From Candidatus Daviesbacteria bacterium (GTDB lineage Bacteria > Patescibacteriota > Microgenomatia > Daviesbacterales > UBA10151): DNA of 64,000 bases. Position 1 is the stretch's first letter; every line of letters starts with the position of its first letter. Shown here one piece after another: positions 19,895 to 53,631 of the stretch. The notes beneath the pieces are model-generated. The model did not search any database and was not told the DNA's origin. It worked only from the letters and a program-made list of their open reading frames with translations. The stretch is taken from positions 409,671 through 473,670 of the forward strand of contig JACPDA010000004.1 in NCBI GenBank assembly GCA_016184225.1, read 5' to 3'. Made by a program: the position numbers and the translations under genes.

Positions 19895-19916
19895 CTGATA
19901 TATTATATTAGCTTCT

Positions 19917-25337: not shown

Positions 25338-25357
25338 GTTTAGATAATACTTGAGAT

Positions 25358-36010: not shown

Positions 36011-37021
36011 ATGATAAATTGTGGATTAATCGGTTATGGATACTGGGGACCGAATATTGCTAAATCTTTAAACAGGATTAAGGGTATTAATTTGGCGGTT
36101 ATTTGCGATAAGGATTTAGGTAGACGTAAAGAAGCTAAACTATTATATCCTCGCGCTGAAATTACCAACGGTGTTGATTTTTTATTTAATCACGCGAATT
36201 TGGATGTAATTATAATTGCAAGTCCTGCCAGCACTCATTATGAACTGGCTGTTAAAGGTTTAAAAGCAGGCAAACATCTTTTAGTAGAAAAACCACTAAC
36301 TTTAACTGTTAAGGAGGCTGAAGATTTAATTCGGATTAATGATAAAGCAAAAAGGGTAGTGATGGTGGGTCATACTTTTGAATATAACCCTGTAGTTTTG
36401 AAGATAAAAAAAATAACTAAGGAGGAAAATTTTGGCAAAATTTATTATATTTATTCAACCAGAGTGAATTTAGGACAGATCAGAGGGGATGTAAATGCGC
36501 TGTGGAATCTGGCACCTCATGATATTTCTATATTAAATTTTCTTTTGGACAAAAACCCCGAGCAAGTGATGGCAGCAGGCGCATCTTTTTTACAGAAAGA
36601 TATTGAAGATGTGGTTTTTATAATACTCCGCTATCCTAATAATGTTTTAGCAGAAATACATCTTAGTTGGTTGGATCCTGCTAAGGAAAGAAAGGTTACT
36701 GTGGTGGGTTCAAAAAAAATGCTGGTTTTTGATGACTTAGATAATGAGATGCCTCTTAAGATTTATGATAAAAGAGCGGATACAAACGAGATTGCAAAAG
36801 GTCTAGCTACAGAGTATAAGATTAAATTGCATTCTGGTGATATTTATGCTCCTCAGATTGAAAATAAGGAGCCTCTTTTAGAAGAACTAGATCACTTTTT
36901 TGATTGTATAAAATACAATAAAAAACCATTAACGGATTTAGAAAATGGTTTAAGAGTAGTTAAGGTTTTAGAAGCGTGTCAAAATTCTCTACAAAATAAT
37001 GGAAAATGGGTAAAAATCTAA
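36011..37021 (+). CDS. Gfo/Idh/MocA-family NAD-dependent sugar oxidoreductase (WbpB-like nucleotide-sugar 3-dehydrogenase).
   Basis: GLIGYGYWGPNIAKS Rossmann N-terminus, EKPLTLTVKEAEDL, characteristic C-terminal alpha/beta domain. Followed immediately by acetyltransferase and aminotransferase genes. Confidence 0.7.
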   Translation: MINCGLIGYGYWGPNIAKSLNRIKGINLAVICDKDLGRRKEAKLLYPRAEITNGVDFLFNHANLDVIIIASPASTHYELAVKGLKAGKHLLVEKPLTLTVKEAEDLIRINDKAKRVVMVGHTFEYNPVVLKIKKITKEENFGKIYYIYSTRVNLGQIRGDVNALWNLAPHDISILNFLLDKNPEQVMAAGASFLQKDIEDVVFIILRYPNNVLAEIHLSWLDPAKERKVTVVGSKKMLVFDDLDNEMPLKIYDKRADTNEIAKGLATEYKIKLHSGDIYAPQIENKEPLLEELDHFFDCIKYNKKPLTDLENGLRVVKVLEACQNSLQNNGKWVKI

Positions 37022-37572
37022 AAAATATAAAAACTGAAGAGTTTGTGGTTATAGAATCAGGTTCAACTTTTGGAGACGGTTGTTTAATCCGATCGCATAC
37101 AATTATTTACGGCGGAAATAAGATAGGCAATAATTTCCAAACCGGCCATGGAGTTCTGATAAGAGAGAATAATAAAATCGGGAATAATGTAAGCATAGGA
37201 AGTCATAGTGTTGTTGAGCATGATGTCGTAATAGAAGATCATTGCCGGATACATTCCAATGTCTTTATTCCTGAATCTTCAGTTTTAAAAAAAAATTGTT
37301 GGATTGGCCCTTGTGTAGTTTTGACAAATGCCAAATACCCAAGATCTAAAAACGTCAAGCAAAATTTAAAAGGGGTTATAGTATCTGAGAATGCTAAAAT
37401 AGGAGCAGGAGCTGTAATTTTACCCGGAGTTAAAATCGGCCAAAATGCTTTAGTCGGAGCAGGCAGTGTAGTTACAGAAGATGTTTTAGAAAATGTAGTT
37501 GTTGCGGGAAACCCGGCAAAAGTGATAAAAAATATTTCGGAAATAAAAGCTTATGAAGAAACAAATCTTTAA
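37006..37572 (+). CDS. Left-handed beta-helix (hexapeptide-repeat) N-acetyltransferase, WbpD/PglD-like.
   Basis: Repeated [LIV]G..xx[LIV] hexapeptide pattern (IGNNFQTGHGVLI, IGNNVSIGSHSVV, IGAGAVILPGVKIGQNALVGAGSVV). Confidence 0.7.
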   Translation: MGKNLKNIKTEEFVVIESGSTFGDGCLIRSHTIIYGGNKIGNNFQTGHGVLIRENNKIGNNVSIGSHSVVEHDVVIEDHCRIHSNVFIPESSVLKKNCWIGPCVVLTNAKYPRSKNVKQNLKGVIVSENAKIGAGAVILPGVKIGQNALVGAGSVVTEDVLENVVVAGNPAKVIKNISEIKAYEETNL

Positions 37573-38671
37573 AAAAATATCATTAATGGATTTGCCGGGG
37601 CAATATAAAGAAGTGGAGAAAGAAGTATTGCCGGTTGTAAAGCGGGTCCTAAAATCCGGTCGTTATGTAATGGGTCCGGAAGTGGCAGAATTTGAGAAAA
37701 ATTTCGCCAAATTCTGTCATGCCAAATATTGTATTGGTACAAGCTCTGGTACAGAATCGTTGCTACTGACTCTAATGGCTTTAAATATTGGGTTGGGTGA
37801 TGAAGTGATTACAGTTCCTAATACCTTTACTGCAACTGCAGAGGTGATAGTACTTGTTGGCGCAACTCCGGTTTTTTGCGACATCGATCCGAAAACAAAA
37901 AATATGGATCCTAAATCCTTAAAAACAAAGATTACCAAAAGAACTAAGGCTGTAATTCCTGTTCACTTGCATGGTAATCCGGTGGATCTGGACGGAATAT
38001 ATAAATTAACAAAATCTAAAAAGATTGCCGTAATAGAAGATGCCGCTCAGGCTCACGGTGCACGATATAAAGGTAAGGTAATTGGTTCCCACAGTAGTGA
38101 ATTTGTCTGCTTTAGTTTTCACCCTGTTAAAAATTTAGGAGCTTTTGGAGATGCCGGAGCAGTTGTAACAAAGAATCCTAAACTGGCGGAAGTGGTGAGA
38201 AAACTTTCTAATCATGGCAGGGAAGACCACTACTTCCATAGCCTAGTGGGTACAACCGGCAGGTTGGATGCAATACAGGGAGCAATTCTGGATGTTAAAC
38301 TTAAAAGACTTAATAAATGGATAAAAGCAAAAAGCCGATGGGCAGGTTATTACAAAAAGAAATTGTCCGGTATCTGTAGATTTATTGAAACAACAAAAAG
38401 TGGGGAAAGCGCTCATCATGTAGTGGCAGTTTTGACCAGCCGTAGAGACGAGCTGTCAGTATATCTTAAAAGTTTTGGTATTGAAACAGGGGTGCATTAT
38501 CCGACTCCCCTGCATATTCAGCCGGCGTACAAATTTTTAGGTTATAAAGAAGGTGATTTTCCAATTGCTGAAAAATATGCTAAAGAAACTCTTTCCCTGC
38601 CCCTATATGCGCATATGAAACAAAAAGATATTGATTTGATAATAGAAAAAATCCGCGACTTTTATTTATGA
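37553..38671 (+). CDS. DegT/DnrJ/EryC1/StrS-family PLP-dependent sugar aminotransferase (WbpE-like).
   Basis: YVMGPEVAEFEKNFAKFCHAKYCIGTSSGTESLLL, VIPVHLHGNPVD, and FSFHPVKNLGAFGDAGAV, which carries the PLP-lysine region. Confidence 0.8.
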   Translation: MKKQIFKKISLMDLPGQYKEVEKEVLPVVKRVLKSGRYVMGPEVAEFEKNFAKFCHAKYCIGTSSGTESLLLTLMALNIGLGDEVITVPNTFTATAEVIVLVGATPVFCDIDPKTKNMDPKSLKTKITKRTKAVIPVHLHGNPVDLDGIYKLTKSKKIAVIEDAAQAHGARYKGKVIGSHSSEFVCFSFHPVKNLGAFGDAGAVVTKNPKLAEVVRKLSNHGREDHYFHSLVGTTGRLDAIQGAILDVKLKRLNKWIKAKSRWAGYYKKKLSGICRFIETTKSGESAHHVVAVLTSRRDELSVYLKSFGIETGVHYPTPLHIQPAYKFLGYKEGDFPIAEKYAKETLSLPLYAHMKQKDIDLIIEKIRDFYL

Positions 38672-39636
38672 AAAAATCAGTAAAAATCTCCGGTAAGAAG
38701 ATACTTATCACTGGCGGCGGGGGTTTTATCGGCAGTTTTCTGACAGAGCGTTTTTATAAAGATAATAAGGTAACTCTTTTTGATAACGGACGTAGGAATT
38801 CTTTCCGTTTTCTCGATCAATCAATACAAAGAAAAGTAAGTTTGATAAACGGGGATATCCGGGACGAAGAAATCGTTAAGAAGATTGTTAAGGGTCAGAA
38901 TATCGTTATTCATCTGGCAGCAATTGCCGGGGCATCTTTTTATGAAACAGATCCTTTGCTGACTTTGGAGGTAAATCTTTTTGGGACTACAAATTTGCTA
39001 AAAGTTTTGGCAGGCAAAAAGATTGAAAGAGTAATTACTTTTTCCACCTCCGAAGTTTACGGATCTTTGGCGAGTGATGTTTCAGAAGATGACTCAACCT
39101 GTATTGGTCCCGTATCCGAAGGTCGGTGGTCGTATGCGGTCTCGAAAGTAGCTTCCGATCATTTGGCCAAAGCATATTTTAAAAAATATGGTCTGCCAGT
39201 TAATATGATAAGGCCTTTTAATATCTATGGACCAAGACAAGTAGGGGAGGGGGCTGTCAGTAATATGTTAACATCGGTCATAAAAACCGGAAAGATTTAT
39301 GTTACGGGTGATGGATCGCAAAAAAGAGCCTGGTGCTACATATCGGATATGGTTAGGGCGGTAGAGCTGATGCTGCAAAAAAATACTTTTGGAGAGTGTT
39401 TCAATATTGGTAATCCTAATGCGTATGTAACTATATTGGAGCTGGCCAAAAAAATTCAGTCTTTATATAAAGGTTCAAAGATAGTTCTTACCAAAGGACG
39501 GGTGGTAGAGGTGTTGGATAGAAAACCCAGTATAGACAAGGCAAAAAATTTATTGGGTTACTATCCTCAAGTTGGACTGGATGATGGTTTGAGAGAAACC
39601 TTTGACTGGTGGAGAAAAAATATCTCTAAATTTTGA
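38668..39636 (+). CDS. NAD-dependent nucleotide-sugar epimerase/dehydratase (extended SDR).
   Basis: KKILITGGGGFIGSFL and YAVSK (YxxxK). ATGA overlap with the aminotransferase gene. Confidence 0.7.
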   Translation: MKKSVKISGKKILITGGGGFIGSFLTERFYKDNKVTLFDNGRRNSFRFLDQSIQRKVSLINGDIRDEEIVKKIVKGQNIVIHLAAIAGASFYETDPLLTLEVNLFGTTNLLKVLAGKKIERVITFSTSEVYGSLASDVSEDDSTCIGPVSEGRWSYAVSKVASDHLAKAYFKKYGLPVNMIRPFNIYGPRQVGEGAVSNMLTSVIKTGKIYVTGDGSQKRAWCYISDMVRAVELMLQKNTFGECFNIGNPNAYVTILELAKKIQSLYKGSKIVLTKGRVVEVLDRKPSIDKAKNLLGYYPQVGLDDGLRETFDWWRKNISKF

Positions 39637-39640
39637 ATAT

Positions 39641-39823
39641 TTAGATTGTTTCTGTCTCAAAAAGTAGAGACTTCATATTCAAATTTAACTCTGCCGCTTT
39701 GACATAATCTGCTTCAATCGTTCTGGACCAAACATCAACTCCAAAATATTTGTTGAAAATTCTAGGATAGATTTGAAAAATATAACTTAATGCTGATATG
39801 ATTAGTCCGATTATAAAAGCCAT
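39641..39823 (-). pseudogene. Truncated remnant, about 60 codons, of a paralog of the membrane-protein gene at 41711..43246.
   Basis: IFQIYPRIFNKYFGVDVWSRTIEADYVK aligns with LLQIYPRLLNKYYGLDVWVKMIEADIFRK at the N-terminus of 41711..43246, about 60% identity over 29 aa. The ORF ends after 60 codons with no continuation. Confidence 0.4.
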
Positions 39824-39910
39824 AAGTTTTAAAAGATTTTTAAATTATATATGAAAACAAGAAAGTAATCAGCTATTTTTTTTGTCTAATAAAAAAGCTA
39901 TAATTTATAA

Positions 39911-41620
39911 ATGTTAATTTTAGGTGTCTGCAATGCTATTGATAGCGGTGCTTGTTTACTAAAGGATGGAAAAATTTTGGCAGCTGTTAGCGAAGAACGG
40001 TTTGTTCGTAAAAAAAATATTGCGACATTTCCTAAGCAGTCAATTAAATATATTCTTCAGAGTCAGAAATTAAAGCCAACTGATATTGATTGGATAGGTT
40101 GTGGTGCCTGGAATGGGGTAGATCAATTAGAAACACTACCACGCTTGATTGAAGATGTGATTGATCAATTAGAGAATAGTCCTAAAGATACTAAAGATAT
40201 TATACTTCAGCGAATTAAAATAACCGGTGAGCGAGATACTGCTTTTAAAAAGGAATTATTTGAGGGTTTAGAGGATTTAGGTTTTCCAAGAGAAAAAGTG
40301 ATTCTTTGTGATCATCATTACTCCCATGCTTTAACTGCTTTTTATTGTTCACCATATAAGGAAGCTTATATTTTTACAGCTGATGGCCGCGGTGATTTTC
40401 GTTCTGTGTCGCTTTGGTCGGCCACACGTATAGAGGGTCTTAAGTTTATTGATATGGCAACAGAGTTAACCAGCTTAGGTGCAATGTATGGGTTTATAAC
40501 AAAGCTATTAGGTTTTACCCCGGATAAACATGAAGGGAAGGTAACAGGCTTAGCAGCTAGAGGTAAGCAGACAAAAGCCTTTGAGATTTTAAAATCCGGA
40601 TTGTGGTTTGATGAGGAAAAGGGAAAGATCCGAAGCAGAATTGGAGATACATACAGACCTTTTATATCTGCCGATTGGCCAGAGATTCATAAAAAATTGG
40701 CAGGTTTCTCAAGGGACGATATAGCCTACGCTGCACAGAAACTTTTGGAGGAAACTTTAATGGGTTTTTTAATAAAGCATATAGGATCTAAGTCAAAGGG
40801 CAGTATAAATCTTTGTTTAGCTGGTGGTTGTATGAGTAATGTGAAGTTAAACTATGAATTATCTAATCTTCCACAGGTAAAGAGTATTTATATTTTTCCT
40901 CAAATGGGAGATGGAGGAAATTCATTAGGTGGAGCTATCAATATAGCATTAACTAAAGGTAATAATATACGCCATTTTGGTCTACCTACTGTTTATCTTG
41001 GACCAGCATATTCAAATGAGGAAATTAAACGGGTTTTGGAAAGTCAAAAGGTTTCATATATTCAAGTTCAATCTCAAGATAAAATAAAAAAGGCAGTTCA
41101 GTTTCTTATTGAAGGAAAGTTAGTGGGTTGGTATCAAGGTCGTATGGAGTATGGGCCTAGAGCATTAGGTGCCAGATCTATATTAGCAGAAGCCACAGAT
41201 AAAGAGATTACCCAAATTCTAAACCAAAGGTTAGAACGGAGTGACTTTATGCCTTTTGCACCAGTCACTATTCCTGAGTATGCAGATAAATGCTTTGTTG
41301 GGTGGCGGCAAGATCATATCTCTTCACGATTCATGACCATTTGTTACCAATGTACGCCCTATCTTAAAAGTAAGTGTCCAGCTATAGTTCATGTTGATGG
41401 AAGCGCTAGACCTCAAGTCGTATTTCGTGAGCAAAATCCAGAATATTATGAAGTAGTTAAATCTTATATAGAACAAACCGGAAATCCAGTTTTAATTAAT
41501 ACCAGCTTTAATAATCACGAGGAACCAATAGTAAATACACCAACAGATGCTATAAACAGTCTGATCAAAAGAAATGTTGATGTACTTATAGCAGGTGACC
41601 TGATTGTCTCATTAAAATAA
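39911..41620 (+). CDS. Carbamoyltransferase (NodU/CmcH/TobZ family O-carbamoyltransferase).
   Basis: N-terminal ILGVCNAIDSGACLLKDGKILAAVSEERF (ASKHA-like carbamoyltransferase N-domain), HHYSHA motif, C-terminal YrdC-like domain, and a length of about 570 aa typical for the family. Confidence 0.75.
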   Translation: MLILGVCNAIDSGACLLKDGKILAAVSEERFVRKKNIATFPKQSIKYILQSQKLKPTDIDWIGCGAWNGVDQLETLPRLIEDVIDQLENSPKDTKDIILQRIKITGERDTAFKKELFEGLEDLGFPREKVILCDHHYSHALTAFYCSPYKEAYIFTADGRGDFRSVSLWSATRIEGLKFIDMATELTSLGAMYGFITKLLGFTPDKHEGKVTGLAARGKQTKAFEILKSGLWFDEEKGKIRSRIGDTYRPFISADWPEIHKKLAGFSRDDIAYAAQKLLEETLMGFLIKHIGSKSKGSINLCLAGGCMSNVKLNYELSNLPQVKSIYIFPQMGDGGNSLGGAINIALTKGNNIRHFGLPTVYLGPAYSNEEIKRVLESQKVSYIQVQSQDKIKKAVQFLIEGKLVGWYQGRMEYGPRALGARSILAEATDKEITQILNQRLERSDFMPFAPVTIPEYADKCFVGWRQDHISSRFMTICYQCTPYLKSKCPAIVHVDGSARPQVVFREQNPEYYEVVKSYIEQTGNPVLINTSFNNHEEPIVNTPTDAINSLIKRNVDVLIAGDLIVSLK

Positions 41621-45730: not shown

Positions 45731-46759
45731 ATGTCTCTAGATCCTAAAGATTTTTCTGTTATCATACCAACATATAATAGAAGCCAGTTTTTAAAAAAAG
45801 CAATCCATTCAGTTTTGAGACAGGATTGTATTTCTTTTGAGGTTATAGTTGGGGACAACTGTTCAACTGATGACACAAGTAAGGTGGTGAAAAGCTTTAA
45901 GGACAGGAGAATTAAATATTTCAAAAACAGGGAAAATCTGGGGTTTGCCGGGAACATCAGGAGATGCTTCAAAAGGGCGCAGGGAGATTTTATTTTTACT
46001 TTAGGTGATGATGATTTAATTTTGGAAGAGCGTACTCTATTTGAAATCCTAAACGCTATGAAGAAGTATAAAACCGGTATGGGCTCAATCGGTACAATTT
46101 ACTATTCTCATTCTCCCAAACACCCAAGTAAAATTTTTCGCTTAAGTGATAAAGTTATTTTTGTCAAACCGGGAAAAGTAAAAAAGTTGCCACTTAAAGC
46201 GTTGGATTTCAATATCTCTTTTTTTACCGGGCTTGTTTTTGACAGATCCTTAATAAATATTGCTAAAATTACAGACAGTTTTACTTATGCATATTTCCCT
46301 TTTTGTTATGATGTTATTTCCAAACAGGGGATAGTTTATCTACCAAGTCTTTTTACTGTCGCTTATATTAGCCAGAGGTTTGTCCCCTATTACTTTAATT
46401 TAGAAAAGCTAGGTAGTTTTTATATGGAAGATTATTTAAAGATGATAAAGGAATTTGTTGATGGAAAAGATTATTTGCAGCATAAAAAAGAATTCTTAAG
46501 AGGAGGGGCAATTTTGCTTCCGAGTATTAAACTTTTTACGGATAATAAAAATTACCTAAAAGTTTTAAAGAAGTTAATTAATTTGGACAACAGCCTTTTA
46601 ACAGACCCGAAGTTTCTTTTACTGGCATTGACCGGCTTTTTGCCAAAAATTATTTTAAAAACGCTGCGCGGATTGATAATTTTTATCTGGGAGAGAAAAA
46701 CCGTTATGCAAGTTAAAAAGTATGGTTACTTTGAAAAGCTTGCAAAGTTAGAGGTTTGA
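45731..46759 (+). CDS. GT2 glycosyltransferase.
   Basis: FSVIIPTYNRSQFLKKAIHSVLRQ...VIVGDNCSTDDT...FTLGDDDL (DxD). Confidence 0.7.
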   Translation: MSLDPKDFSVIIPTYNRSQFLKKAIHSVLRQDCISFEVIVGDNCSTDDTSKVVKSFKDRRIKYFKNRENLGFAGNIRRCFKRAQGDFIFTLGDDDLILEERTLFEILNAMKKYKTGMGSIGTIYYSHSPKHPSKIFRLSDKVIFVKPGKVKKLPLKALDFNISFFTGLVFDRSLINIAKITDSFTYAYFPFCYDVISKQGIVYLPSLFTVAYISQRFVPYYFNLEKLGSFYMEDYLKMIKEFVDGKDYLQHKKEFLRGGAILLPSIKLFTDNKNYLKVLKKLINLDNSLLTDPKFLLLALTGFLPKIILKTLRGLIIFIWERKTVMQVKKYGYFEKLAKLEV

Positions 46760-47749
46760 CCTTATTTTACCAATCAACTCCTGTACCCGTACCCCTTCTT
46801 TGAATGATGGGATCATCTGCTCTTTGTGGGCGCAACAATATATAAAACGGGCAGCTATCTTTTTTACAATCCTGACCCGTTCATCCTCGTCAATTTTTTT
46901 TGGTTTTTCTTTGAGTTTAATTTTTGTCTCTTTTTTTTCTGAATAAATCTTTATTACAAAATCAGTTACAGACCCGCTTTCATTTTTCAGTATAATTGCC
47001 CCTTTTTCGCACTGAAATATTAATTGATGCTTGTTATAGACTTTGGTACTTATGGAGATATGGGCATAACCTTTGATTCCCGTTTTAAAGCTTAATAGCA
47101 AATCAAGGCCGACTTCCCCGCTGTTTATACTTTCTTTGGAATAGAAAAATTGGCTTTTGATTCCGGTAATTTCCCCGGCTAAATATTCGAGGTAATAAAG
47201 AGAATGGGAAAAGTAATATGATAAGGCGCCTCCGCCTTCACGGGTATTTGTTTTCCAGGATGAGATTTTATTTTTAATATCATAGCTTAAGAAGTCCCAG
47301 TTTAAGGAAATATGCCTTAATTTGCCGTATACTTTTTTATCTATCATCTCCTTAACTTTTTGCCACGCTTCAATTTCCGGAAAAATAAAATCAACCGCGT
47401 TAGTTATTTTTTTTTTGGTAGCAATTCTGAGTAGCTCTTTAGCCTGTTGGTAATTTAGCGCTAAGGGCTTTTCCGCAAAAATATGTAGATTTTTCCTAAG
47501 AGCCGCTCTAATTATATTATGTTGAGCATTAGGGGGTACTGCTATGGCAACGGCATTTATTTTCTCTGTAGCCAACATTTCTTGCCAGCTGGTGTATATT
47601 TTCCCGAGTCCTATGCTCTGACAATATTTAACAAGACGTTCTGTTTTTTTGCCGCAAATAGCGATAACTTTACAGCCAACAGTAGAATTAAAAGCAGGGA
47701 GTAAACCATAAAGGCCAAATCCAGACCCGATTATGCCAACTTTTATCAT
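46748..47749 (-). CDS. Gfo/Idh/MocA-family NAD(P)-dependent oxidoreductase.
   Basis: MIKVGIIGSGFGLYGLLPAF Rossmann N-terminus, EKPLALNYQQAKEL. The coding strand contains an A11 homopolymer (KKK). Confidence 0.65.
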   Translation of the reverse strand: MIKVGIIGSGFGLYGLLPAFNSTVGCKVIAICGKKTERLVKYCQSIGLGKIYTSWQEMLATEKINAVAIAVPPNAQHNIIRAALRKNLHIFAEKPLALNYQQAKELLRIATKKKITNAVDFIFPEIEAWQKVKEMIDKKVYGKLRHISLNWDFLSYDIKNKISSWKTNTREGGGALSYYFSHSLYYLEYLAGEITGIKSQFFYSKESINSGEVGLDLLLSFKTGIKGYAHISISTKVYNKHQLIFQCEKGAIILKNESGSVTDFVIKIYSEKKETKIKLKEKPKKIDEDERVRIVKKIAARFIYCCAHKEQMIPSFKEGVRVQELIGKIRSNL

Positions 47750-47752
47750 TTT

Positions 47753-49033
47753 TTAGATGCTTGAGTTTTTAACAACTTTAAAATCAGGCAAAGGGATTAC
47801 GAAATCAGATTTAAGTCCCCTGGCTTTAAGTTGCTGCATTATTGGTTTGGCATAATGCCAGGCTAACAGAACTACAAAATTAGGTTGCTCTTTTATTAAC
47901 CGTTTATTGTCTACTACCGGGATATGTTTACCGGGTAAATACATGTTTAATTTTAACGAGGTTGGTTGTTCAGCCAAATAGGGCAACAGCTCTTTATCAA
48001 CACCATAATAGTTTAAAAGTGTGGAGCATCGGCCGGGACAGGAATTTCCCACAATAGATTTACCTTTCTTCTTAAGTTTAATGATAAAATCCATAAATTT
48101 CAGCCGGGCTTTTTGTACCCGCTCTGCGAAGCGCCGGTACGTTTCAATTTTACCCAGACCGAAGTCTTCTTCTGTTTTCAATAACTTTATCACTTGGGGG
48201 CTGACTTTTTTTCCTTTGCCTTTTGCCGCATGTATACGCAGATTGCCTCCATACCTGCTGCCCCTTTCAACATCTATGAGTGTAAAATCATAATAGTTAA
48301 ATAGTTTAACCAGGGATTTTAGTGAATAAGTCCTGAGATGTTCATGGTAGATGGTATCGAACTGGCCTTTGGCAATAACGTCCAGAAGATAATGTGTTTC
48401 TGAAATGAATACGCCATCTTCAGTTAGTAAATTATAAATTCCCATAATGACTTCACCTAAAGTTTGCATATGCGCGAACATATTGGTCGCCGTAATTACG
48501 GAAGCCGGCCCGTATTTTGCCCTGATTTTTTTTGAAAGCTCAATATCAAAAAAAGCCTGGATTGTCCTGATGCCGTTTTTCCGCGCGATTTTGGCAATAT
48601 TGGTGGGTTCTACGCCCAGCACCTTGATCCTGTTTTTTATAAAGCCGCTGAGTAATGTTCCGTCATTGGAGCCAATATCGATTACCAGGTTATTTGGTTT
48701 TATATTATATTTATTGATTAAAGAATGACAGATATTTTCCTGATATTCTGCCAACTCTTTTGTAATACCGCTTCTGTAAGGGTAACCAGGATAGTAAACC
48801 TTGCTGCTGTCCACACAATAATCAATTTGGGCACAAGTGCAAATCTCGCACCACATCATTCGTAAAGGATAAGTTGTCTCGGGATCACTTAGCATCTTAT
48901 CTGTCAGCATGAAAGCACAAAGTGGTTGATGCCCAAGGTCTAGGATTTTATGTAACTTTTTATTGTTACAAATTTGGCAAGCCGAGATGTGTCCTTCTTT
49001 GATATAATGATGTTTTGGGTAATTTGACTGCAT
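47753..49033 (-). CDS. NDP-hexose C-methyltransferase (TylCIII-like), second paralog.
   Basis: CQICNNKK...CEICTC zinc ribbon, LVIDIGSNDGTLL, FDTIYHEHLRTYS. Clearly paralogous to 17027..18274. Confidence 0.65.
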   Translation of the reverse strand: MQSNYPKHHYIKEGHISACQICNNKKLHKILDLGHQPLCAFMLTDKMLSDPETTYPLRMMWCEICTCAQIDYCVDSSKVYYPGYPYRSGITKELAEYQENICHSLINKYNIKPNNLVIDIGSNDGTLLSGFIKNRIKVLGVEPTNIAKIARKNGIRTIQAFFDIELSKKIRAKYGPASVITATNMFAHMQTLGEVIMGIYNLLTEDGVFISETHYLLDVIAKGQFDTIYHEHLRTYSLKSLVKLFNYYDFTLIDVERGSRYGGNLRIHAAKGKGKKVSPQVIKLLKTEEDFGLGKIETYRRFAERVQKARLKFMDFIIKLKKKGKSIVGNSCPGRCSTLLNYYGVDKELLPYLAEQPTSLKLNMYLPGKHIPVVDNKRLIKEQPNFVVLLAWHYAKPIMQQLKARGLKSDFVIPLPDFKVVKNSSI

Positions 49034-49054
49034 GATTTTTGCCAGTATAACATA

Positions 49055-50113
49055 TCAATTTTGCCACTGTAAATTCTTATTAAGCCTTTTTCGGGATATT
49101 AGCGATTGAAGCCTGCTTAAGCGTATAAATTTGCCCTGTTCAAAATCCTTGCTGCTGAACTTATGCTTTTTCAGCATTTTTATAAGATGCAGGACGGATT
49201 TTCTTATTGGCCACTTTGGTGTGGTATCAGCAAATAAATTACTTATTTTACTAAAATCTACTTTATAACTTCTTGTATCTTTCCCGTGTTCTCCTGTAAA
49301 AACAATTTCACATTTTGGCAGAGACTCTTTTATAACACCCAGAATATCTTTTATCTGATAATTACTGTTGTTAAATCCCACATTGTAAATCTCTCCATTT
49401 ATCTTTTTTGCATCAACTTCAATAAATTTGCATATGATATTGCATAAATCTCTTACGTCAATAAGCGGTCTCCATGGTGTCCCGTCGCTCAATACTTTTA
49501 TCTGACCGAGCGCCAGGCCGCAAGTTACCAAATTATTAACAACCAAATCATTTCTAAATCTGGGAGAAAAACCATATACAGTAGCATTTCTCAGCAGACA
49601 AACGCAAAAGCTGTCGTTTTTTAATTTATATAACTCTTTTTCTGCTAAAGCTTTGGATTTGGCATAAGCAGTCAAGGGGTTAATAATCGATTCTTCGTTT
49701 ACAATACCTTTTTTGGCAATTCCATATATGGAACAAGAAGAGAAGAAGATGAATCTTTTTACACCCCTCTCCCTGGCAATTCTTGCCAATCTGATTGTAG
49801 CTTTATAGTTTATATCAAAGGTGAGTTTTTCATCCAAAGCCCCCATCGGATCATTCGATAGGGCAGCCAAGTGAACTATACAATCAATTTGATTAAGATC
49901 AAGTTTGTTTTGACGCACGTCATTTTTTTTTGAATGGTAGGAATTTTTGTAAGTACCCAAAGTGATGTTTTTAAAATAATTTAAATCCCATCCCATTACC
50001 TGATAGCCCTTTTTTTGTAATTTTTCCGCTAAAACAGTTCCGATATAACCATTTACACCGGTAATTAAAATTCTTTTTACCATATTTTCCAAGGGATTTT
50101 CCCAGAATTCCAA
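49055..50113 (-). CDS. NAD-dependent sugar epimerase/dehydratase (extended SDR), probably acting on a CDP-hexose.
   Basis: RILITGVNGYIGTVL glycine motif and YAKSK (YxxxK). Sits between the rfbF-like gene and the C-methyltransferase on the same strand. Confidence 0.65.
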   Translation of the reverse strand: MEFWENPLENMVKRILITGVNGYIGTVLAEKLQKKGYQVMGWDLNYFKNITLGTYKNSYHSKKNDVRQNKLDLNQIDCIVHLAALSNDPMGALDEKLTFDINYKATIRLARIARERGVKRFIFFSSCSIYGIAKKGIVNEESIINPLTAYAKSKALAEKELYKLKNDSFCVCLLRNATVYGFSPRFRNDLVVNNLVTCGLALGQIKVLSDGTPWRPLIDVRDLCNIICKFIEVDAKKINGEIYNVGFNNSNYQIKDILGVIKESLPKCEIVFTGEHGKDTRSYKVDFSKISNLFADTTPKWPIRKSVLHLIKMLKKHKFSSKDFEQGKFIRLSRLQSLISRKRLNKNLQWQN

Positions 50114-50853
50114 ATCTTGTTAAGATCGTCAAGTTCTTTATAAGTATCTATGGCAAACCAAAACCCTTCATGTTTATATACGGAAAGCTGTCTTTCTTTG
50201 ACAAGCCGTTTCATCCCGTCGTGTTCATATTCTCCCGGCCGCAGGTATTTAAAAAAAATTCTGTCAAAAACCATATACCCGCCATTAACCCAGTCTGATA
50301 AAACCGGTTTTTCCGTAAAACCTTTGACAAAAGTTCCATTGGTAATCTTTACTAAACCGTATTTAGACCTGGGATGAACTGCGCTGATGGTCCCGATTGT
50401 TTGTTGTTTTTTATGAAACTTAATCAGCTTCCTGATATTAATATTCGATACTCCGTCTCCGTACGTTACCATAAAATATTGGTCTGTTTGGGGAATATAT
50501 TTCCTGCATAAAAGAATCCTCTCGCCGGGCAAGGTTTCCAAACCGGTATCGACAAAAGTGATTTTAAATTGATCGACTTCTGCTGTGTCTTTCAAGTAAA
50601 ATTTAGTGTTATCGCTTCCAGTATCTAAAGTAAAATCAGTAGTAAAAGCCTTCTGGTTTAGGAAGTAGTCTTTAATATAATCAGCTTTGTATCCAAGTGC
50701 TAATATAAATTCATTGAAACCATAATGGGCGTAGATTTTCATTATGTGCCAAAGAAGCGGTTTGTTGCCTACTAAAACCATCGGTTTTGGCTTAAATTCT
50801 GTCTCTTCTTTTAATCTGGTTCCTATCCCGCCGCAGAGAATAATAACTTTCAT
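50077..50853 (-). CDS. rfbF: Glucose-1-phosphate cytidylyltransferase (CDP-glucose pyrophosphorylase, RfbF/DdhA-like).
   Basis: MKVIILCGGIGTRLKEETEFKPKPMVLVGNKPLLWHIMKIYAHYGFNEFILALGYK is the canonical RfbF N-terminus. The start is taken at the internal ATG at 50853, although the ORF extends to 50880. Confidence 0.75.
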   Translation of the reverse strand: MKVIILCGGIGTRLKEETEFKPKPMVLVGNKPLLWHIMKIYAHYGFNEFILALGYKADYIKDYFLNQKAFTTDFTLDTGSDNTKFYLKDTAEVDQFKITFVDTGLETLPGERILLCRKYIPQTDQYFMVTYGDGVSNINIRKLIKFHKKQQTIGTISAVHPRSKYGLVKITNGTFVKGFTEKPVLSDWVNGGYMVFDRIFFKYLRPGEYEHDGMKRLVKERQLSVYKHEGFWFAIDTYKELDDLNKIWNSGKIPWKIW

Positions 50854-50931
50854 ATTTAAACACTTCAATTCTAGTTGCAATCCTTAGTAGAAGTCAATGT
50901 CTGTGAAGTGATACAATTTGTTAACGAATTG

Positions 50932-53631
50932 ATGAAATTTATTTTTTCCTTATTTGCTTTATGCTTAATAATAGTTTCCGTATGGTTTTACCGCGGTAAT
51001 ATTTTAGGCGGTGGCGATGAAGGCTTACAGTTTTATAAACCAAGCATCAGTTTTAACAATTCCAAAACTGCCTGGGTTGAATATGGTACAGGAATGGGAA
51101 CAATAACCTGGTTGCCCAGAGCAAACTTACTCTATTTTTATTCTATTCCGGAAAAATTAGGCATAGCAACTTTTATGCTGCAAGCAAGCTTGATCTTTAT
51201 TATTATGTTTGTCGCGGCAATCTCAATTTACAAATTATGCCTAATCGTTTTAGGTGATATTAAAGAAAGCAAGTTGATATCAGCCGTAACAGCCGTTTTT
51301 TACTTACTCAATCCCTATGCCGTAAGTCAAGTATGGGCAAGGGGGCAATCGGCCCAATACCTTGCTTTCGGCCTGCTTCCTCTATCTGTTTTATTATTCT
51401 TATTGGGTGTCAAAAAGAAAAACTTCCTTTATGCTATTTTAACTGTTTTCGTGTCATTTATATTTGCAGCAGCATATAGTTTTTTTTCTTTTATAATAGT
51501 TTACTGGTTAATTTTAGGATTCGTTCTTTTATTTAATTTTTTAACTACAGGCAGCAAGTTAAAAGAAGCCCTGTTTAGTATCTTCTTTTTTCTAATAGCA
51601 TTTTTGCTATGGATTTTTATCCATTCCTGGTGGCTAGTGCCGCTGCTTTTGTCTTCCGGCAGTATATACTCAGCAGGCATTTCCGGGGCAAATGAAAATC
51701 TGGGGACGCTGATGGGGGTCAGCAAAAATTTCCCTCCTGATATCCTGATCCGTCTTTTACAGCGGACCTACTTTTTTGACCCGTCAGCCTTCAGCCCGGT
51801 CTATTCCTTATTTATATTCCAGTTAATCAGTTGGATACCGGTATTGTTTCTATTAATCGGTTTATATAAGACTATTAAAAATAAATTACCAGGTTTTAAA
51901 TTTTTTATAATAGTTTTTACCCTGGGATTAATTGTATCTTTAGGCGCGAACCCTCCGTTTGGCTGGCTTTTTGTAGAAGTTTTTAGACGGGTAACAATAT
52001 TGCAGGCTTTTAGAAATCCTTTTGAGAAATTTGGTTTAGTTTTTATATTAGGCTATTCCCCGCTTTTTGCTTATGGCCTGGTTTCATTGTTTAATAATAT
52101 TAAATACAGGAGTTTCACAATCTTTCTGATTCTTATTTTAACCTGCGGAGTGTTTGCCTGGCCGATATGGACCGGCAGAGCGGTAGCTGGTCCGGATAAA
52201 AAAGTTGGTTTATCTGTGCCGCCTTATTACAAAGATTTGCAGACGTGGGCAGGAGAAAACAATGAAGATTATAGATTATTTATGACCCCAATTTGGAAAG
52301 GGGATGGCGCATCTTACTTGTGGGGTGATGCCGGTAGGTTTCAGGGTACAGATCCGATGATTTATTTATTGGATCAGCCGACTATTTCCAACAGTTTCTA
52401 CGCCCCGATTTCTTACGAGTTTATCCCCAATATTAGAAAGTACATAGGCAGAGTAAACATTGCTCCCGCTTTGACTTTATTGAGAGCAAAATATTTGGTT
52501 GACCGGCAAGATGCAATATTTACCACTAAGTTAGAGAAGGACCATAAAAGATATTTGACAGAAGCGGTATACATCCCCCAAAAGGAGGCAGTAAATATAA
52601 CCAAGTTATGTAAAAACCTAAGCTCGGTTGCGAATGAGATAAACCCGGCCTGGATAGCCTGCCCGGTAGCGGATACAGAAAGTAATTGGGATAAAATAAG
52701 GTATTTGCATGTTAAGATCAGAACCGATGTCGCTTCCCTTCTAGATATCACTATAATGGATAAGAATGGGATTAGGGTAAGATGGGACGGCAGGTTTGAC
52801 AGCGAGTATTCAACAGAAGGGAGTTTTACTACAGTTACAATTCCTCTTGGTAATCCGACCGAATATAACGCCGCGATAGATTATTCTAAAGTTATGATGC
52901 TGGAAATACAGGCTCGCCCTAAAGACAGACCCGAATTTAGCGTTAATGAAATAAATTTAGAAGAGATAAGTTTAGATCCGGGTAAGGAAGAAAAGGTTGA
53001 TAATTTCCGCTTAATAAAGACATTCGGTAATTTAGAAGTATATGAGCCAATTTCTTTTAAATCGCCTCCGCAATTTGGAAGTTTAGCAAAAATTTCTTTT
53101 GTGCCAAATTTTATAGAGTTGTTTGAGCAAGTTAACAGACAAAAGGATTTAGTGAAGGATTTAGGCTTTTTAGTAACTGCGCAGAATCAGGGTAAAGATT
53201 TGCGGCAGTTGGAGACAGATGGGATGTTGCAAGTAGTAGATAAAGAAGAGATTTCCGGTACACGGTTTTGGCTGATGACTAACGGAAGTCAGGGATTCAT
53301 CTTACTTAGTAAAACCTTTGATCCGCAGTGGATACTGATACCCCGTATCAGCCGTGACAAACTTTCAGGTAACTTATTTGAAGATTTAGACCTTTTGAGC
53401 CAGGCAACTGTCGGGGAAGAAAATCATTTTGCTATTAATGGATACGCAAATTTATGGAAGGTTGATGGACAAGACCAGGAATATGTAATAATCTATAAGC
53501 CGCAAATAATAGCTGATATAGGAGCTGAGATTTCAAGATATTCCTTATTTGTTTTGTCAGCGATAATGATTTTTTGGTGGTTGAAGAAAAGATATGTAGG
53601 GAGCATTAAAAATGCAAAAAAAGACAATTAA
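50932..53631 (+). CDS. Very large polytopic membrane protein (about 900 aa) with an extracytoplasmic C-terminal domain. Possible GT-C-like or YfhO/AftD-like glycan-processing enzyme.
   Basis: TM1 then GGGDEGLQFYKPS acidic loop motif, more than 12 TM helices in the first 430 aa, then about 470 aa of hydrophilic domain and a final C-terminal TM helix. The listed ORF begins at a TTG at 50875. The first ATG, MKFIFSLF at 50932, starts TM1. Confidence 0.45.
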   Translation: MKFIFSLFALCLIIVSVWFYRGNILGGGDEGLQFYKPSISFNNSKTAWVEYGTGMGTITWLPRANLLYFYSIPEKLGIATFMLQASLIFIIMFVAAISIYKLCLIVLGDIKESKLISAVTAVFYLLNPYAVSQVWARGQSAQYLAFGLLPLSVLLFLLGVKKKNFLYAILTVFVSFIFAAAYSFFSFIIVYWLILGFVLLFNFLTTGSKLKEALFSIFFFLIAFLLWIFIHSWWLVPLLLSSGSIYSAGISGANENLGTLMGVSKNFPPDILIRLLQRTYFFDPSAFSPVYSLFIFQLISWIPVLFLLIGLYKTIKNKLPGFKFFIIVFTLGLIVSLGANPPFGWLFVEVFRRVTILQAFRNPFEKFGLVFILGYSPLFAYGLVSLFNNIKYRSFTIFLILILTCGVFAWPIWTGRAVAGPDKKVGLSVPPYYKDLQTWAGENNEDYRLFMTPIWKGDGASYLWGDAGRFQGTDPMIYLLDQPTISNSFYAPISYEFIPNIRKYIGRVNIAPALTLLRAKYLVDRQDAIFTTKLEKDHKRYLTEAVYIPQKEAVNITKLCKNLSSVANEINPAWIACPVADTESNWDKIRYLHVKIRTDVASLLDITIMDKNGIRVRWDGRFDSEYSTEGSFTTVTIPLGNPTEYNAAIDYSKVMMLEIQARPKDRPEFSVNEINLEEISLDPGKEEKVDNFRLIKTFGNLEVYEPISFKSPPQFGSLAKISFVPNFIELFEQVNRQKDLVKDLGFLVTAQNQGKDLRQLETDGMLQVVDKEEISGTRFWLMTNGSQGFILLSKTFDPQWILIPRISRDKLSGNLFEDLDLLSQATVGEENHFAINGYANLWKVDGQDQEYVIIYKPQIIADIGAEISRYSLFVLSAIMIFWWLKKRYVGSIKNAKKDN

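Follow-up and report, generated by a model that had tools for sequence, protein, structure and literature searches.

We find that a bacterium of the candidate-phylum lineage Daviesbacteria carries a four-gene operon that most likely makes a nucleotide-activated, methyl-branched sugar for surface glycans. Two of its four steps use enzyme types that textbook pathways lack. The genes lie on the minus strand at 46748..50853 of the 64-kb window (the whole stretch of DNA analysed) and encode, in order, an RfbF-like nucleotidyltransferase, an extended SDR, the C-methyltransferase MT1 and a Gfo/Idh/MocA oxidoreductase (Gfo). The operon is as the initial annotation had described it, with all four open reading frames present and strong domain matches. 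Its packing is tight: the nucleotidyltransferase stop overlaps the SDR start (ATGGTAA), and the gaps between SDR and MT1 and between MT1 and Gfo are 21 nt and 3 nt. The arrangement is far beyond chance: relatives of MT1 number in the thousands (at about 72% identity), and its neighbours are kept in independent genomes. The operon and its flanking genes are as follows.

45731..46759, plus strand, GT2 glycosyltransferase (PF00535, 104.2 bits), convergent with the operon
46748..47749, minus strand, Gfo/Idh/MocA oxidoreductase, 333 aa (PF01408, 80.6 bits, E=2e-22)
47753..49033, minus strand, MT1, NDP-hexose C-methyltransferase of the TylC3/TcaB9/MtmC type, 426 aa
49055..50083, minus strand, extended SDR of the S(S/T)CS subfamily, 342 aa (PF01370, E=3e-41)
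50077..50853, minus strand, RfbF-like sugar-1-phosphate nucleotidyltransferase, 258 aa from ATG (PF00483, E=2e-21)
50875..53631, plus strand, membrane protein, 918 aa, divergent from the operon

The GT2 glycosyltransferase, which overlaps the 3' end of the operon by 12 nt, is a candidate transferase for the operon product. On the other side, the 918-aa membrane protein has about 10 hydrophobic segments in its N-terminal part and a large C-terminal domain, and had no match in Pfam or NCBIfam profile searches. A 51% identical ortholog (894 aa) occupies the same divergent position in Daviesbacteria locus L008, and the protein is possibly a GT-C-type transferase.

The nucleotidyltransferase and the likely carrier

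Judged by its profile matches, the first gene (ATG at 50853, stop at 50077) is clearly RfbF-like. It matches TIGR02623 over its full length with 263.4 bits, the next family reaching 87 bits, and PDB 1tzf, the S. typhi glucose-1-phosphate cytidylyltransferase, with 187 bits; it is also the single NTP_transferase-type gene detected within the window. We predict that it converts glucose-1-phosphate to CDP-glucose, in line with its first description as an rfbF-like CDP-glucose pyrophosphorylase. CDP is a likely carrier, not a certain one, because the TIGR02623 score falls below the curated cut-off of 300.25 and dTDP-pathway enzymes are paired with MT1 orthologs in other genomes. Both points would also fit a carrier other than CDP or a sugar not derived from glucose, if the enzyme activates another sugar-1-phosphate or uses another NTP, and the additional PIG-L deacetylase of a Calothrix-type cassette hints that the sugar in that case is an amino sugar. 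We consider this improbable given the wide lead of RfbF, no other family exceeding 87 bits, and the identity of about 43% to a genuine RfbF scoring above the cut-off.

An SDR related to a C4-dehydrogenase

The SDR reads from an ATG at 50083, a start identical to that of NCBI protein P0121, to a stop at 49055. Whether it is a CDP-glucose 4,6-dehydratase had been posed initially as a matter for motif alignment, and as a canonical enzyme of this kind it is rejected: its TIGR02622 score is 21.7 bits, far below the cut-off of 278, and in an alignment with RfbB, Gmd, RfbG-like proteins and GalE its SSCS motif stands in place of the TDE, TSE or SDK of dehydratases. In RfbB, Gmd and RfbG-like proteins a D-E, S-E or D-K pair follows the catalytic Ser/Thr; the SDR lacks this pair, and where the dehydratase base would be (Glu135 of RfbB, Glu of Gmd, Lys of RfbG-like proteins) it has Ser, as does Cj1427. 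Residues S115-S116-C117-S118, Y140 and K144 are kept in 32 homologs (S118 in at least 90%, the others invariant).

Cj1427 is the nearest solved relative of the SDR by both sequence and fold. The best PDB sequence match is 6vo6 (101.6 bits; next 69.7), and the top six Foldseek matches are all Cj1427, followed by C4-epimerases with E-values only about 100-fold weaker; dehydratase structures rank lower. The two proteins are 30% identical, and the invariant Cys of the SDR family is Asn in Cj1427. Cj1427 has been characterised as a nucleotide-sugar C4-dehydrogenase: it does not dehydrate its substrate, and the product it releases is a 4-keto sugar (PMC10680097). We predict that the Daviesbacteria SDR supplies a 4-keto sugar in a Cj1427-like manner and not as a canonical 4,6-dehydratase. 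The initial view that the sugar is “probably deoxy” thus finds no support in the sequence, because the closest solved relative does not dehydrate and the SDR lacks the dehydratase pair.

It is possible, if on the unlikely side, that the SDR works as a CDP-glucose 4,6-dehydratase of a non-canonical type, perhaps through invariant Cys117, and that the product is CDP-6-deoxy-3-C-methyl-hexose, which is essentially what was first proposed. The Ser at the catalytic-base position, shared with non-dehydrating Cj1427 and at least 90% of the 32 homologs, argues against this, as do the low scores on TIGR02622, TIGR01181 (52.9 bits) and Gmd (19.3 bits) and the Foldseek ranking of Cj1427 and C4-epimerases above dehydratases. 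On the other side, a dehydratase recycles its own NAD+ and would need no external oxidant, the operon has no other dehydratase-grade SDR, and some of the gene neighbourhoods described next would fit such an enzyme.

A conserved two-gene module with interchangeable feeders

In Patescibacteria, Gfo lies directly downstream of MT1 orthologs (65-73% identity) at 19 of 21 assessable loci, and the two genes form a conserved core module. The enzymes that feed it with a 4-keto sugar are interchangeable: RmlA and RmlB, RfbF and an RfbG-like enzyme, UGDH and an SSSE-type SDR or, here, the RfbF-like enzyme and the SSCS SDR. For instance, the L014 cluster consists of just RmlA, RmlB, MT1 and Gfo, and its RmlB is genuine (TIGR01181, 381 bits; cut-off 365). 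RmlB supplies the ketone there, and the sole candidate reductase is Gfo; orthology suggests the same roles here, with the SDR as ketone generator.

The feeder at most other MT1-Gfo loci is a true 4,6-dehydratase. Genuine RmlB or RfbG-like (SSDK) dehydratases feed MT1 orthologs at L014, L015, L001, L005, L094 and L095, which speaks for dehydration here too. At L007 and L009 the order is RfbF-like gene, SDR (a 55% identical homolog), RmlC-like gene and RmlD; the SDR homolog occupies the slot of the 4-keto generator, and the resemblance to the rhamnose pathway, with an RmlD above the TIGR01214 cut-off, points the same way. The known feeders give CH3 (RmlB, RfbG-like) or H (UGDH with the SSSE-type SDR) at C5, so a CH2OH substrate for MT1 would not be out of line.

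Outside this group, S(S/T)CS SDRs occur in many other phyla, at 43 of 72 C-methyltransferase loci; an RfbF-like gene accompanies them at 40 of the 43 and RmlC at 34. This company sustains the link to the CDP pathway that had been drawn initially and speaks against a UDP-sugar epimerase unrelated to it. Cassettes of RfbF, RfbG, RmlC and a C-methyltransferase also occur in other phyla.

The same loci bear on a scheme with reversed roles, in which Gfo oxidises C3 in WlbA fashion, MT1 methylates C2 or C4 and the SDR comes in late, as ketoreductase or C4-epimerase. Characterised nucleotide-sugar enzymes of the Gfo family are often 3-dehydrogenases, the NCBIfam matches of Gfo include UDP-GlcNAc 3-dehydrogenase (55.7 bits), and C4-epimerases come next after Cj1427 among the structural matches of the SDR. 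We nevertheless regard the scheme as very doubtful. RmlA and RmlB already give a 4-keto sugar at L014 and L015, where no SDR reductase adjoins the MT1-Gfo pair, and every characterised relative of the methyltransferase acts beside a 4-ketone. Moreover, S(S/T)CS SDRs, which accompany RmlC-like epimerases and C-methyltransferases, cannot depend on Gfo for a ketone, because 42 of the 43 loci in other phyla have the C-methyltransferase and no Gfo.

The methyltransferases and the oxidoreductase

By profile search, MT1 and a second C-methyltransferase, MT2, have the full TylC3/TcaB9 architecture of zinc, SAM and C-terminal domains, and the initial assignment of MT1 as TylCIII-like and of MT2 as its paralog is borne out. 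MT1 matches PF08421 (57.7 bits), PF13489 (47.3 bits) and PF08484 (141.4 bits), with E-values down to 3e-41; in the PDB sequence search it scores no more than 223.5 bits with MtmC (4rv9) and 197 bits with TcaB9. It keeps the CxxC...CxxC motif, the YPY tyrosine, the histidine and Y-x-E-H; residues mutated in TcaB9 are retained by both MT1 and MT2. Because the architecture is complete and the nucleotidyltransferase is RfbF-like, the C-methyl-branched, probably CDP-linked sugar of the initial annotation stands as a sound prediction.

Gfo further matches PF22725 (46.6 bits) and PF02894 (31.6 bits) and belongs to a subfamily that conserves FAEKPL, GGGAL..FSH and PSF.EG.RVQELI. We predict that it reduces the keto group of the methylated sugar; to our knowledge, a 4-ketoreductase role would be new for the Gfo/Idh/MocA family. 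Gfo is not the sole option, because MtmC, which among solved structures is closest to both methyltransferases, has 4-ketoreductase activity too.

A second C-methyltransferase

MT2 lies in a different part of the window, among these genes.

10106..11083, plus strand, Fcl/GME-like SDR (motif SSACIYPE; NF047922, 130.8 bits)
14217..15554, plus strand, nucleotide-sugar 6-dehydrogenase (TIGR03026, 305.7 bits)
15551..16507, plus strand, SDR2 (motif SSSMVFE, lacking the decarboxylase/dehydratase glutamate)
16523..17023, plus strand, DUF5667 protein (PF18915, 32 bits), directly upstream of MT2
17027..18274, plus strand, MT2, NDP-hexose C-methyltransferase, 415 aa, complete
18255..19148, minus strand, RmlD-like 4-ketoreductase (PF04321, 157.6 bits), convergent with MT2
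19145..20008, minus strand, GT2 glycosyltransferase (PF00535), downstream of the RmlD-like gene

MT2 is 35% identical to MT1 and belongs to a separate orthogroup, found in many Daviesbacteria at 76-86% identity. It matches PF08421 (77.8 bits), PF08484 (197.5 bits), MtmC (345 bits) and TcaB9 (279 bits). The C-methyltransferase first noted here is real and complete, and it probably serves a second branched sugar made from a 4-keto precursor. Its proposed link to the adjacent dehydrogenase/epimerase pair (14217..16507) is not conserved: L172, a close relative whose MT2 is 83% identical, lacks the pair between its Fcl-like SDR and DUF5667 genes. The pair therefore speaks only weakly for a second dedicated pathway. 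The conserved partners of MT2 are instead the RmlD-like reductase, the GT2, the DUF5667 protein and the Fcl/GME-like SDR. The first three have orthologs at the same positions in L172 (66%, 72% and 63% identity, respectively), where a 79% ortholog of the Fcl/GME-like SDR adjoins DUF5667 and MT2 directly upstream. The RmlD-like protein scores 140.8 bits on TIGR01214, below the cut-off of 224, and its STDVIF motif matches STDYVF of RfbD. The GT2 is a candidate transferase for the MT2 sugar.

Comparison with known pathways

The actinomycete dTDP-hexose 3-C-methyltransferases TylC3, TcaB9, KijD1 and MtmC (PDB 3ndi, 5t6b, 4rv9) have the same Cys4 zinc, SAM and Methyltransf_14 domains and share the active-site Tyr, His and Y-x-E-H with MT1, and their pathways follow the same logic of methylation beside a 4-ketone and then reduction. 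Those pathways use dTDP, the dehydratase RmlB and SDR-type 4-ketoreductases and lie in secondary-metabolite clusters, whereas the Daviesbacteria operon combines a Cj1427-like SDR with an RfbF-like transferase and a Gfo/Idh/MocA partner and belongs to the surface-glycan island of a CPR bacterium. The predicted virenose pathway of Coxiella burnetii LPS (Gmd or RmlB, the TylCIII-like CBU_0691 and an Fcl-like reductase) likewise uses a TylC3-type enzyme for a cell-surface glycan and not an antibiotic, possibly on a non-dTDP carrier. It differs in its canonical 4,6-dehydratase, SDR epimerase/reductase, 6-deoxy product and lack of Gfo.

In the heptose modification of Campylobacter jejuni, Cj1427 is followed by a C3/C5-epimerase and a C4-reductase. 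In that route and in the one proposed here, a modifying enzyme would receive a 4-keto nucleotide sugar in free form and a separate reductase would act afterwards, and both SDRs lack the dehydratase base and contain an ATV(Y/F)G.SP.R.DL.VN block. The substrate is GDP-heptose in C. jejuni and a predicted CDP-hexose here, the modifying enzyme here is a C-methyltransferase, and T-N-S of Cj1427 stands against S-C-S in the SDR family. For Gfo, the 3-ketoreductase KijD10 (PDB 3rbv) and WlbA-type 3-dehydrogenases share its two-domain fold and EKP lysine motif and show that members of the family can act on NDP-sugars at a keto or hydroxy group. Its match to KijD10 is weak (44.9 bits), its best PDB match (1zh8, 65 bits) has no assigned function, and the subfamily signature GGGAL..FSH replaces the usual Asp-x3-His.

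Two CDP-linked branched sugars are also relevant. Yersiniose A, made with YerE and YerF, likewise arises from a CDP-4-keto intermediate, but its two-carbon branch comes from pyruvate through the thiamine-diphosphate enzyme YerE and not a SAM methyltransferase. The “yersiniose methyltransferase” suggested initially for comparison therefore does not exist, and a YerE-like gene is missing at the Daviesbacteria locus. CDP-vinelose of Azotobacter vinelandii (CDP-6-deoxy-3-C-methyl-2-O-methyl-L-talose) demonstrates that CDP-linked C-methyl-branched hexoses exist in nature. It differs from the product proposed here in being an O-methylated 6-deoxy sugar of the L series and would fit the RfbF, RfbG, RmlC and C-methyltransferase cassettes of other phyla better than the Daviesbacteria operon.

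Proposed pathway

Based on these comparisons, we propose the following steps. By homology, the RfbF-like enzyme would form CDP-glucose from glucose-1-phosphate and CTP. The S(S/T)CS SDR, whose keto role is suggested by gene context, would then oxidise C4 and release a CDP-4-keto-hexose. That the C6 hydroxyl is kept is a less certain commitment, suggested by the missing dehydratase base and kinship to Cj1427. MT1 and SAM would methylate the carbon beside the ketone, most likely C3 rather than C5 by analogy to TylC3, TcaB9 and MtmC, and Gfo would reduce the 4-ketone to give CDP-3-C-methyl-hexose. MT1 and Gfo would thus be the conserved core and the first two steps a swappable feeder. We tentatively favour, at somewhat less than even confidence, the reading that the operon is a self-contained pathway of these steps, which would deliver a nucleotide-activated, non-deoxy C-methyl-branched hexose to the many glycosyltransferases of the Daviesbacteria glycan island.

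A four-gene operon for a predicted branched nucleotide sugar

Four consecutive ORFs with unambiguous Pfam matches, each with an ATG start, occupy the minus strand at 46748-50853:

50853..50077, minus strand, RfbF-like nucleotidyltransferase (258 aa)
50083..49055, minus strand, extended SDR (342 aa; same start as NCBI protein P0121)
49033..47753, minus strand, C-methyltransferase MT1 (426 aa)
47749..46748, minus strand, Gfo/Idh/MocA oxidoreductase, hereafter Gfo (333 aa)

The gene junctions are operon-like: the stop of the nucleotidyltransferase gene overlaps the start of the SDR gene in ATGGTAA, and the gaps between SDR and MT1 and between MT1 and Gfo are 21 nt and 3 nt, respectively. The nucleotidyltransferase matches TIGR02623 (glucose-1-phosphate cytidylyltransferase RfbF) over its full length with 263.4 bits, a score that is under the curated equivalog cut-off of 300.25 bits and compares with 87 bits for the next family. 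Its homolog in comparison locus L001 clears that cut-off (312.5 bits), and the S. typhi enzyme (PDB 1tzf) aligns across the whole protein with 187 bits. Judged by these matches, CDP-glucose is the likeliest product. We found no second NTP_transferase-type gene besides the operon's in the 64-kb window.

MT1 and a second C-methyltransferase in the window, MT2 (17027..18274, plus strand), each contain three domains above gathering scores: the N-terminal Cys4 zinc-binding domain PF08421 (57.7 bits for MT1 and 77.8 for MT2; cut-off 31.3), a class I SAM domain, and a nearly full-length C-terminal Methyltransf_14 domain, PF08484 (141.4 and 197.5 bits; cut-off 23.5). The only PDB relatives of the two proteins are the sugar 3-C-methyltransferases MtmC (4rv9), TcaB9 (3ndi and mutants) and KijD1 (5t6b, 5t64). 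Scores against MtmC are 223 bits for MT1 and 345 for MT2, and those against TcaB9 are 197 and 279 bits, with MT2 the nearer of the two to characterized enzymes. The CxxC...CxxC pattern of both proteins aligns with the cysteines of MtmC and TcaB9. Two TcaB9 residues have been probed by mutation according to the PDB mutant chains (Y to F in YPY, 4e31; E to Q in YDEH, 4e2y), and the active-site Tyr, upstream His and Glu-His are kept as GYPY, FAHM and IYHEH in MT1 and as NYVY, VAHV and IYQEH in MT2. By every sequence criterion applied, MT1 and MT2 belong to the TylC3/TcaB9 family and are predicted to catalyze C-methylation of an NDP-4-keto sugar with SAM as donor. The initial annotation had called MT1 TylCIII-like and MT2 its paralog, and the profile check bears this out since neither protein, with its full domain set, lacks the C-terminal C-methyltransferase domain. 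With 35% identity and membership in different orthogroups, the two are distant family members rather than recent duplicates.

The core of the earlier prediction, a C-methyl-branched and probably CDP-linked sugar, is sound given the TIGR02623 score of the RfbF-like enzyme and the intact MT1. CDP-vinelose is proof that CDP-linked C-methyl sugars exist. Our literature search returned nothing relevant on CDP-glucose with a C-methyltransferase, on C-methyltransferases in Patescibacteria, on TcaB9/TylC3 with CDP, or on vinelose. For TylCIII-type enzymes, activity had been shown on TDP sugars only (PMC3539893). Yersiniose, to which the product had been compared, does not serve for comparison: a thiamine enzyme, YerE, makes the branch of that sugar by acting on CDP-4-keto-3,6-dideoxyglucose (PMC9306805).

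MT1 and the SDR are identical to proteins that NCBI lists under Candidatus Daviesbacteria. As a whole, the window (GC about 36%) is a single long island of glycan-biosynthesis genes: GT2, GT4 and PMT-type transferases, a flippase, and numerous large membrane proteins with no Pfam match. Large multi-pass membrane proteins (475-773 aa) are unusually dense (942..3958, 11083..13404, 19917..27145, 29806..31695 and 60587..62485); two are PMT_2-type and most others have no Pfam match. Interleaved with them are GT2 and GT4 genes and an RGP-like protein (27155..28303). Divergent from the operon, 50875..53631 (plus strand) encodes a 918-aa protein that has about 10 hydrophobic segments in its N-terminal part, a domain of about 490 aa at the C-terminus, and no match in Pfam or NCBIfam. 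Its 51% ortholog in another Daviesbacteria genome (L008) has the same divergent position beside RfbF-like, SDR and MT1 genes. A GT-C-type transferase that uses the branched sugar is one possible identity for this protein.

The operon SDR is not a canonical dehydratase

The proposal that the operon SDR is a CDP-glucose 4,6-dehydratase (RfbG) fails on both profile score and motif alignment. The SDR scores 21.7 bits on TIGR02622 (cut-off 278.45), 52.9 on the dTDP-glucose 4,6-dehydratase profile and 19.3 on Gmd, and its top NCBIfam match, GalE, reaches 88.7 bits (cut-off 262). By comparison, TIGR02622 gives 214 bits for the RfbG-like proteins that accompany MT1 in L001 and L005. We aligned the SDR with E. 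coli RfbB, Gmd and GalE, with RfbG-like MT1 partners from other genomes, and with Cj1427. In dehydratases an acid/base pair directly follows the catalytic Ser/Thr (S-T-D-E-V-Y-G in RfbB, S-T-S-E-L-Y-G in Gmd, S-S-D-K-A-Y-G in the L001 RfbG-like protein). The operon SDR has S-S-C-S-I-Y-G at this site, so that the pair (D-K, D-E or S-E) is missing, and Cj1427, which reads N-T-N-S, shares with it a Ser at the Glu/Lys position. The 32 homologs of the SDR subfamily that were compared show no variation at S115, S116, C117, Y140 or K144, and at least 90% of them conserve S118. The YxxxK pair (YAKSK, Y140 and K144) and the N-terminal TGxxGxxG Rossmann NAD site are present, as in all extended SDRs, and do not discriminate for dehydratase identity. 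We also considered whether the Cys of the SSCS motif is the catalytic Cys109 of GDP-fucose synthase and rejected this, as it sits one position earlier, at RfbB Asp134 and not at Glu135/Cys109.

Sequence and fold both place the SDR, which lacks the dehydratase base, nearest to Cj1427 among solved structures. In a phmmer search of the PDB the closest entries are 6vo6/6vo8 (101.6 bits; runner-up 69.7), and an AlphaFold2 model (pLDDT 93.5) run through Foldseek returns 6vo6 and 6vo8, entries described as Cj1427, at ranks 1-6 (E=1.6e-24, TM 0.78/0.87, 30% identity), followed by C4-epimerases and TunA, with dTDP-glucose 4,6-dehydratases from rank 29 on. The block ATV(Y/F)G.SP.R.DL.VN is common to the SDR and Cj1427. 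Cj1427 is a characterized C4-dehydrogenase whose product from GDP-D-glycero-D-manno-heptose is the free 4-keto sugar; alpha-ketoglutarate serves as the oxidant and recycles the tightly bound NADH, and the product then goes to epimerases and separate C4-reductases (PMC10680097).

Gene context ties the SDR to 4-keto sugars. Homologs with 55% identity, in Levybacteria and on another large contig, lie in the order RfbF-like, SDR, RmlC-like 3,5-epimerase, RmlD (259 bits on TIGR01214, above cut-off), where the SDR occupies the place of the 4-ketone-making enzyme. Our sample from other phyla (cyanobacteria, Bacteroidota, Nocardia, Rhodococcus, Tsukamurella, Acidobacteriota and proteobacteria, among others) comprised 72 C-methyltransferase loci. 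An RfbF-like gene is present in 64 of the 72 and an SDR homolog (36-44% identity) in 43, 37 of which have the S(S/T)CS motif. The 43 loci with an SDR homolog have an RfbF-like gene in 40 cases and an RmlC-like gene in 34, which argues against an SDR unrelated to the CDP pathway, a possibility raised in the initial annotation. The SDR family is thus tightly tied to RfbF-like genes and to enzymes that require a 4-ketone. A cassette of S(S/T)CS SDR, C-methyltransferase, RfbF-like and RmlC-like genes is widespread outside the candidate phyla radiation (CPR), in L057 and about 40 other loci among L020-L091, and we know of no characterized product for it. In Calothrix sp. NIES-2100 (L057, 8909..15515) the RfbF-like protein scores 214 bits on TIGR02623, and the cassette also includes a PIG-L deacetylase, a classical adh_short SDR and a DUF4910/DUF2172 protein.

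The main rival to a C4-dehydrogenase is a non-canonical 4,6-dehydratase giving a deoxy product, and the RfbF-SDR-RmlC-RmlD layout, which mirrors the rhamnose pathway, fits it. The missing catalytic base and the relationship to Cj1427 speak against this alternative; for the same reasons the description of the product as "probably deoxy" is unsupported, and we hold with modest confidence that the SDR is non-dehydrating and its product hence not deoxygenated.

An MT1-Gfo core with exchangeable feeders

MT1 followed by Gfo is a conserved core in Patescibacteria, to which the upstream enzymes are swappable feeders. Gfo lies directly after MT1 at 19 of the 21 assessable loci with at least 65% MT1 identity, this window included; the exceptions, L001 and L005, have a shorter, divergent Gfo-type protein after MT1 (304 aa, 25-27% identical). 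Gfo has an N-terminal Rossmann and a C-terminal alpha/beta domain (PF01408 80.6, PF22725 46.6 and PF02894 31.6 bits, all over cut-offs). The MT1-linked proteins form a subfamily of their own, marked by FAEKPL, SWKT...GGGAL..FSH and PSF.EG.RVQELI. Wherever the alignment covers them, FAEKPL, with the EKP lysine, and GGGAL..FSH, with the catalytic His, are kept in every long-form ortholog linked to MT1, and Tyr or Phe replaces the usual Asp four residues ahead of this His. MT1 has a clearly delimited orthogroup: identity is 68-72% in six species representatives of Patescibacteria, 50-54% in two MAGs from outside the CPR, and at most 36% in every other sampled locus. These two MAGs, from Pseudobdellovibrionaceae (L018, 54%) and Pirellulales (L019, 50%), are the sole non-Patescibacteria species representatives with MT1-type proteins, which have RfbF-like and RfbG-like neighbors in L018 and an RfbG-like neighbor in L019; horizontal transfer or binning contamination could account for them.

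Feeder enzymes of the MT1-Gfo module by locus
RmlA and genuine RmlB: L014 and L015 (TIGR01181 381 and 441 bits; cut-off 365)
RfbF and RfbG-like SSDK SDR: L001, L005, L094 and L095
RfbF-like, UGDH-like dehydrogenase and SSSE-type SDR (SSSEIYG), full set: L003 4788..10284 and L016 6788..12287
SSSE-type SDR: L098, L099, L101 and L102 (UGDH-like gene also in L098, L099 and L101)
RfbF-like and SSCS SDR: this window and L012

The L014 cluster consists of RmlA, RmlB, MT1 and Gfo and nothing more. In that cluster RmlB supplies the ketone, and no enzyme other than Gfo is a candidate for the final reduction; by orthology the same roles would apply in this window, which makes the SSCS SDR the ketone generator. 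MtmC-type enzymes can reduce the 4-ketone too (PMC3539893), a caveat on the reductase role assigned to Gfo. The predicted feeder products are 4-keto pyranoses that carry CH3 (RmlB, RfbG) or H (UGDH and decarboxylase-type SDR) at C5. Loci of the L003/L016 type suggest that a CDP-glucuronate to CDP-4-keto-pentose route feeds the C-methyltransferase, and there is precedent for branching of a 4-keto-pentose (PMC10338323). If a non-dehydrating SDR supplied a substrate with CH2OH, it would be a further member of this series. The non-canonical dehydratase is also favored for this operon by the fact that genuine dehydratases feed the majority of MT1-Gfo modules. When MT1 sequences were compared with feeder type for substrate adaptation, clustering was partial only, and the two MT1 proteins with an SSCS SDR partner (72% identical) are no closer to each other than to the rest.

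A dehydratase encoded elsewhere in the window is an unlikely source of a 4-keto-6-deoxy sugar for the operon. The only SDR in the window with a dehydratase/decarboxylase-type motif, 38668..39636 (STSEVYG, UXS/ArnA/Gmd-type), scores 170 bits on TIGR01181 (cut-off 365) and belongs to a separate plus-strand operon. This second sugar-modification operon (36011..41620) encodes a Gfo/Idh/MocA protein resembling UDP-GlcNAc 3-dehydrogenase (NF040723, 176 bits), a hexapeptide acetyltransferase, a DegT aminotransferase, the SDR and a carbamoyltransferase, a gene set reminiscent of a WlbA/B/C-style acetamido-sugar module that includes O-carbamoylation.

A second C-methyltransferase locus

MT2 had been grouped with a neighboring dehydrogenase/epimerase pair, UGDH (14217) and SDR2 (15551), which might make a second, differently branched sugar. 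The MT2 orthogroup spans many Daviesbacteria at 76-86% identity, and in L172, the closest sampled relative (MT2 83% identical), the order is Fcl/GME-like SDR, DUF5667 protein, MT2, convergent RmlD-like reductase, GT2. Orthologs of these neighbors are found in the window at 10106 (79%), 16523 (63%), 18255 (66%) and 19145 (72%), and UGDH and SDR2 are missing at the corresponding position in L172. The pairing of MT2 with UGDH/SDR2 is therefore not conserved. In L172 the ortholog of the SDR at 10106..11083 (plus strand; SSACIYPE, the Fcl/GME pattern, in which Cys takes the catalytic-base position) is immediately upstream of DUF5667 and MT2, and because of this adjacency the 773-aa membrane protein, GT2, UGDH and SDR2 (11083..16507) look inserted in the window. 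More distant MT2 relatives have other gene contexts. Two differently branched sugars are still plausible, as the window has two intact methyltransferases, each with its own reductase and GT2. MT2 could share the operon's CDP-4-keto sugar as substrate, given the single nucleotidyltransferase found in the window.

A proposed pathway and its significance

These data leave room for a tentative proposal, one we regard as possible rather than probable, that S(S/T)CS SDRs form a large class of CDP-hexose C4-dehydrogenases in many phyla, that MT1 and Gfo form a plug-in cassette with Gfo as the 4-ketoreductase, and that the product here is a non-deoxy CDP-3-C-methyl-hexose. The S(S/T)CS SDRs would release free CDP-4-keto-hexoses, without 6-deoxygenation, to C-methyltransferases and RmlC-like epimerases, and the "methylate then reduce" cassette of MT1 and Gfo would take 4-keto pyranoses with CH3, H or CH2OH at C5. 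To our knowledge, a 4-ketoreductase role has not been described for the Gfo/Idh/MocA family, and we know of no biosynthetic route to non-deoxy CDP-3-C-methyl-hexoses. The operon pathway differs from characterized dTDP routes in three of four steps (carrier, ketone generator and reductase family), and the predicted route joins two unfamiliar enzymes to a methyltransferase of a familiar kind.

Beyond the initial annotation, the main interest lies in the Patescibacteria MT1-Gfo module with its swappable feeders and in the widespread, uncharacterized S(S/T)CS SDR family that accompanies RfbF-like genes and C-methyltransferases across bacteria. Members of this family are annotated only as "SDR family oxidoreductase", yet in bacteria that range from cyanobacteria to Nocardia they lie beside RfbF-like and C-methyltransferase genes. 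If their reaction were established, be it that of a C4-dehydrogenase or of a 4,6-dehydratase of a new kind, many genes could be annotated and branched-sugar glycoengineering would gain a building block. We know of no experimental work on the surface glycans of CPR bacteria, whose cells live attached to hosts and whose envelope is likely central to that lifestyle. The operon and its relatives predict C-methyl-branched surface sugars in many of these bacteria.
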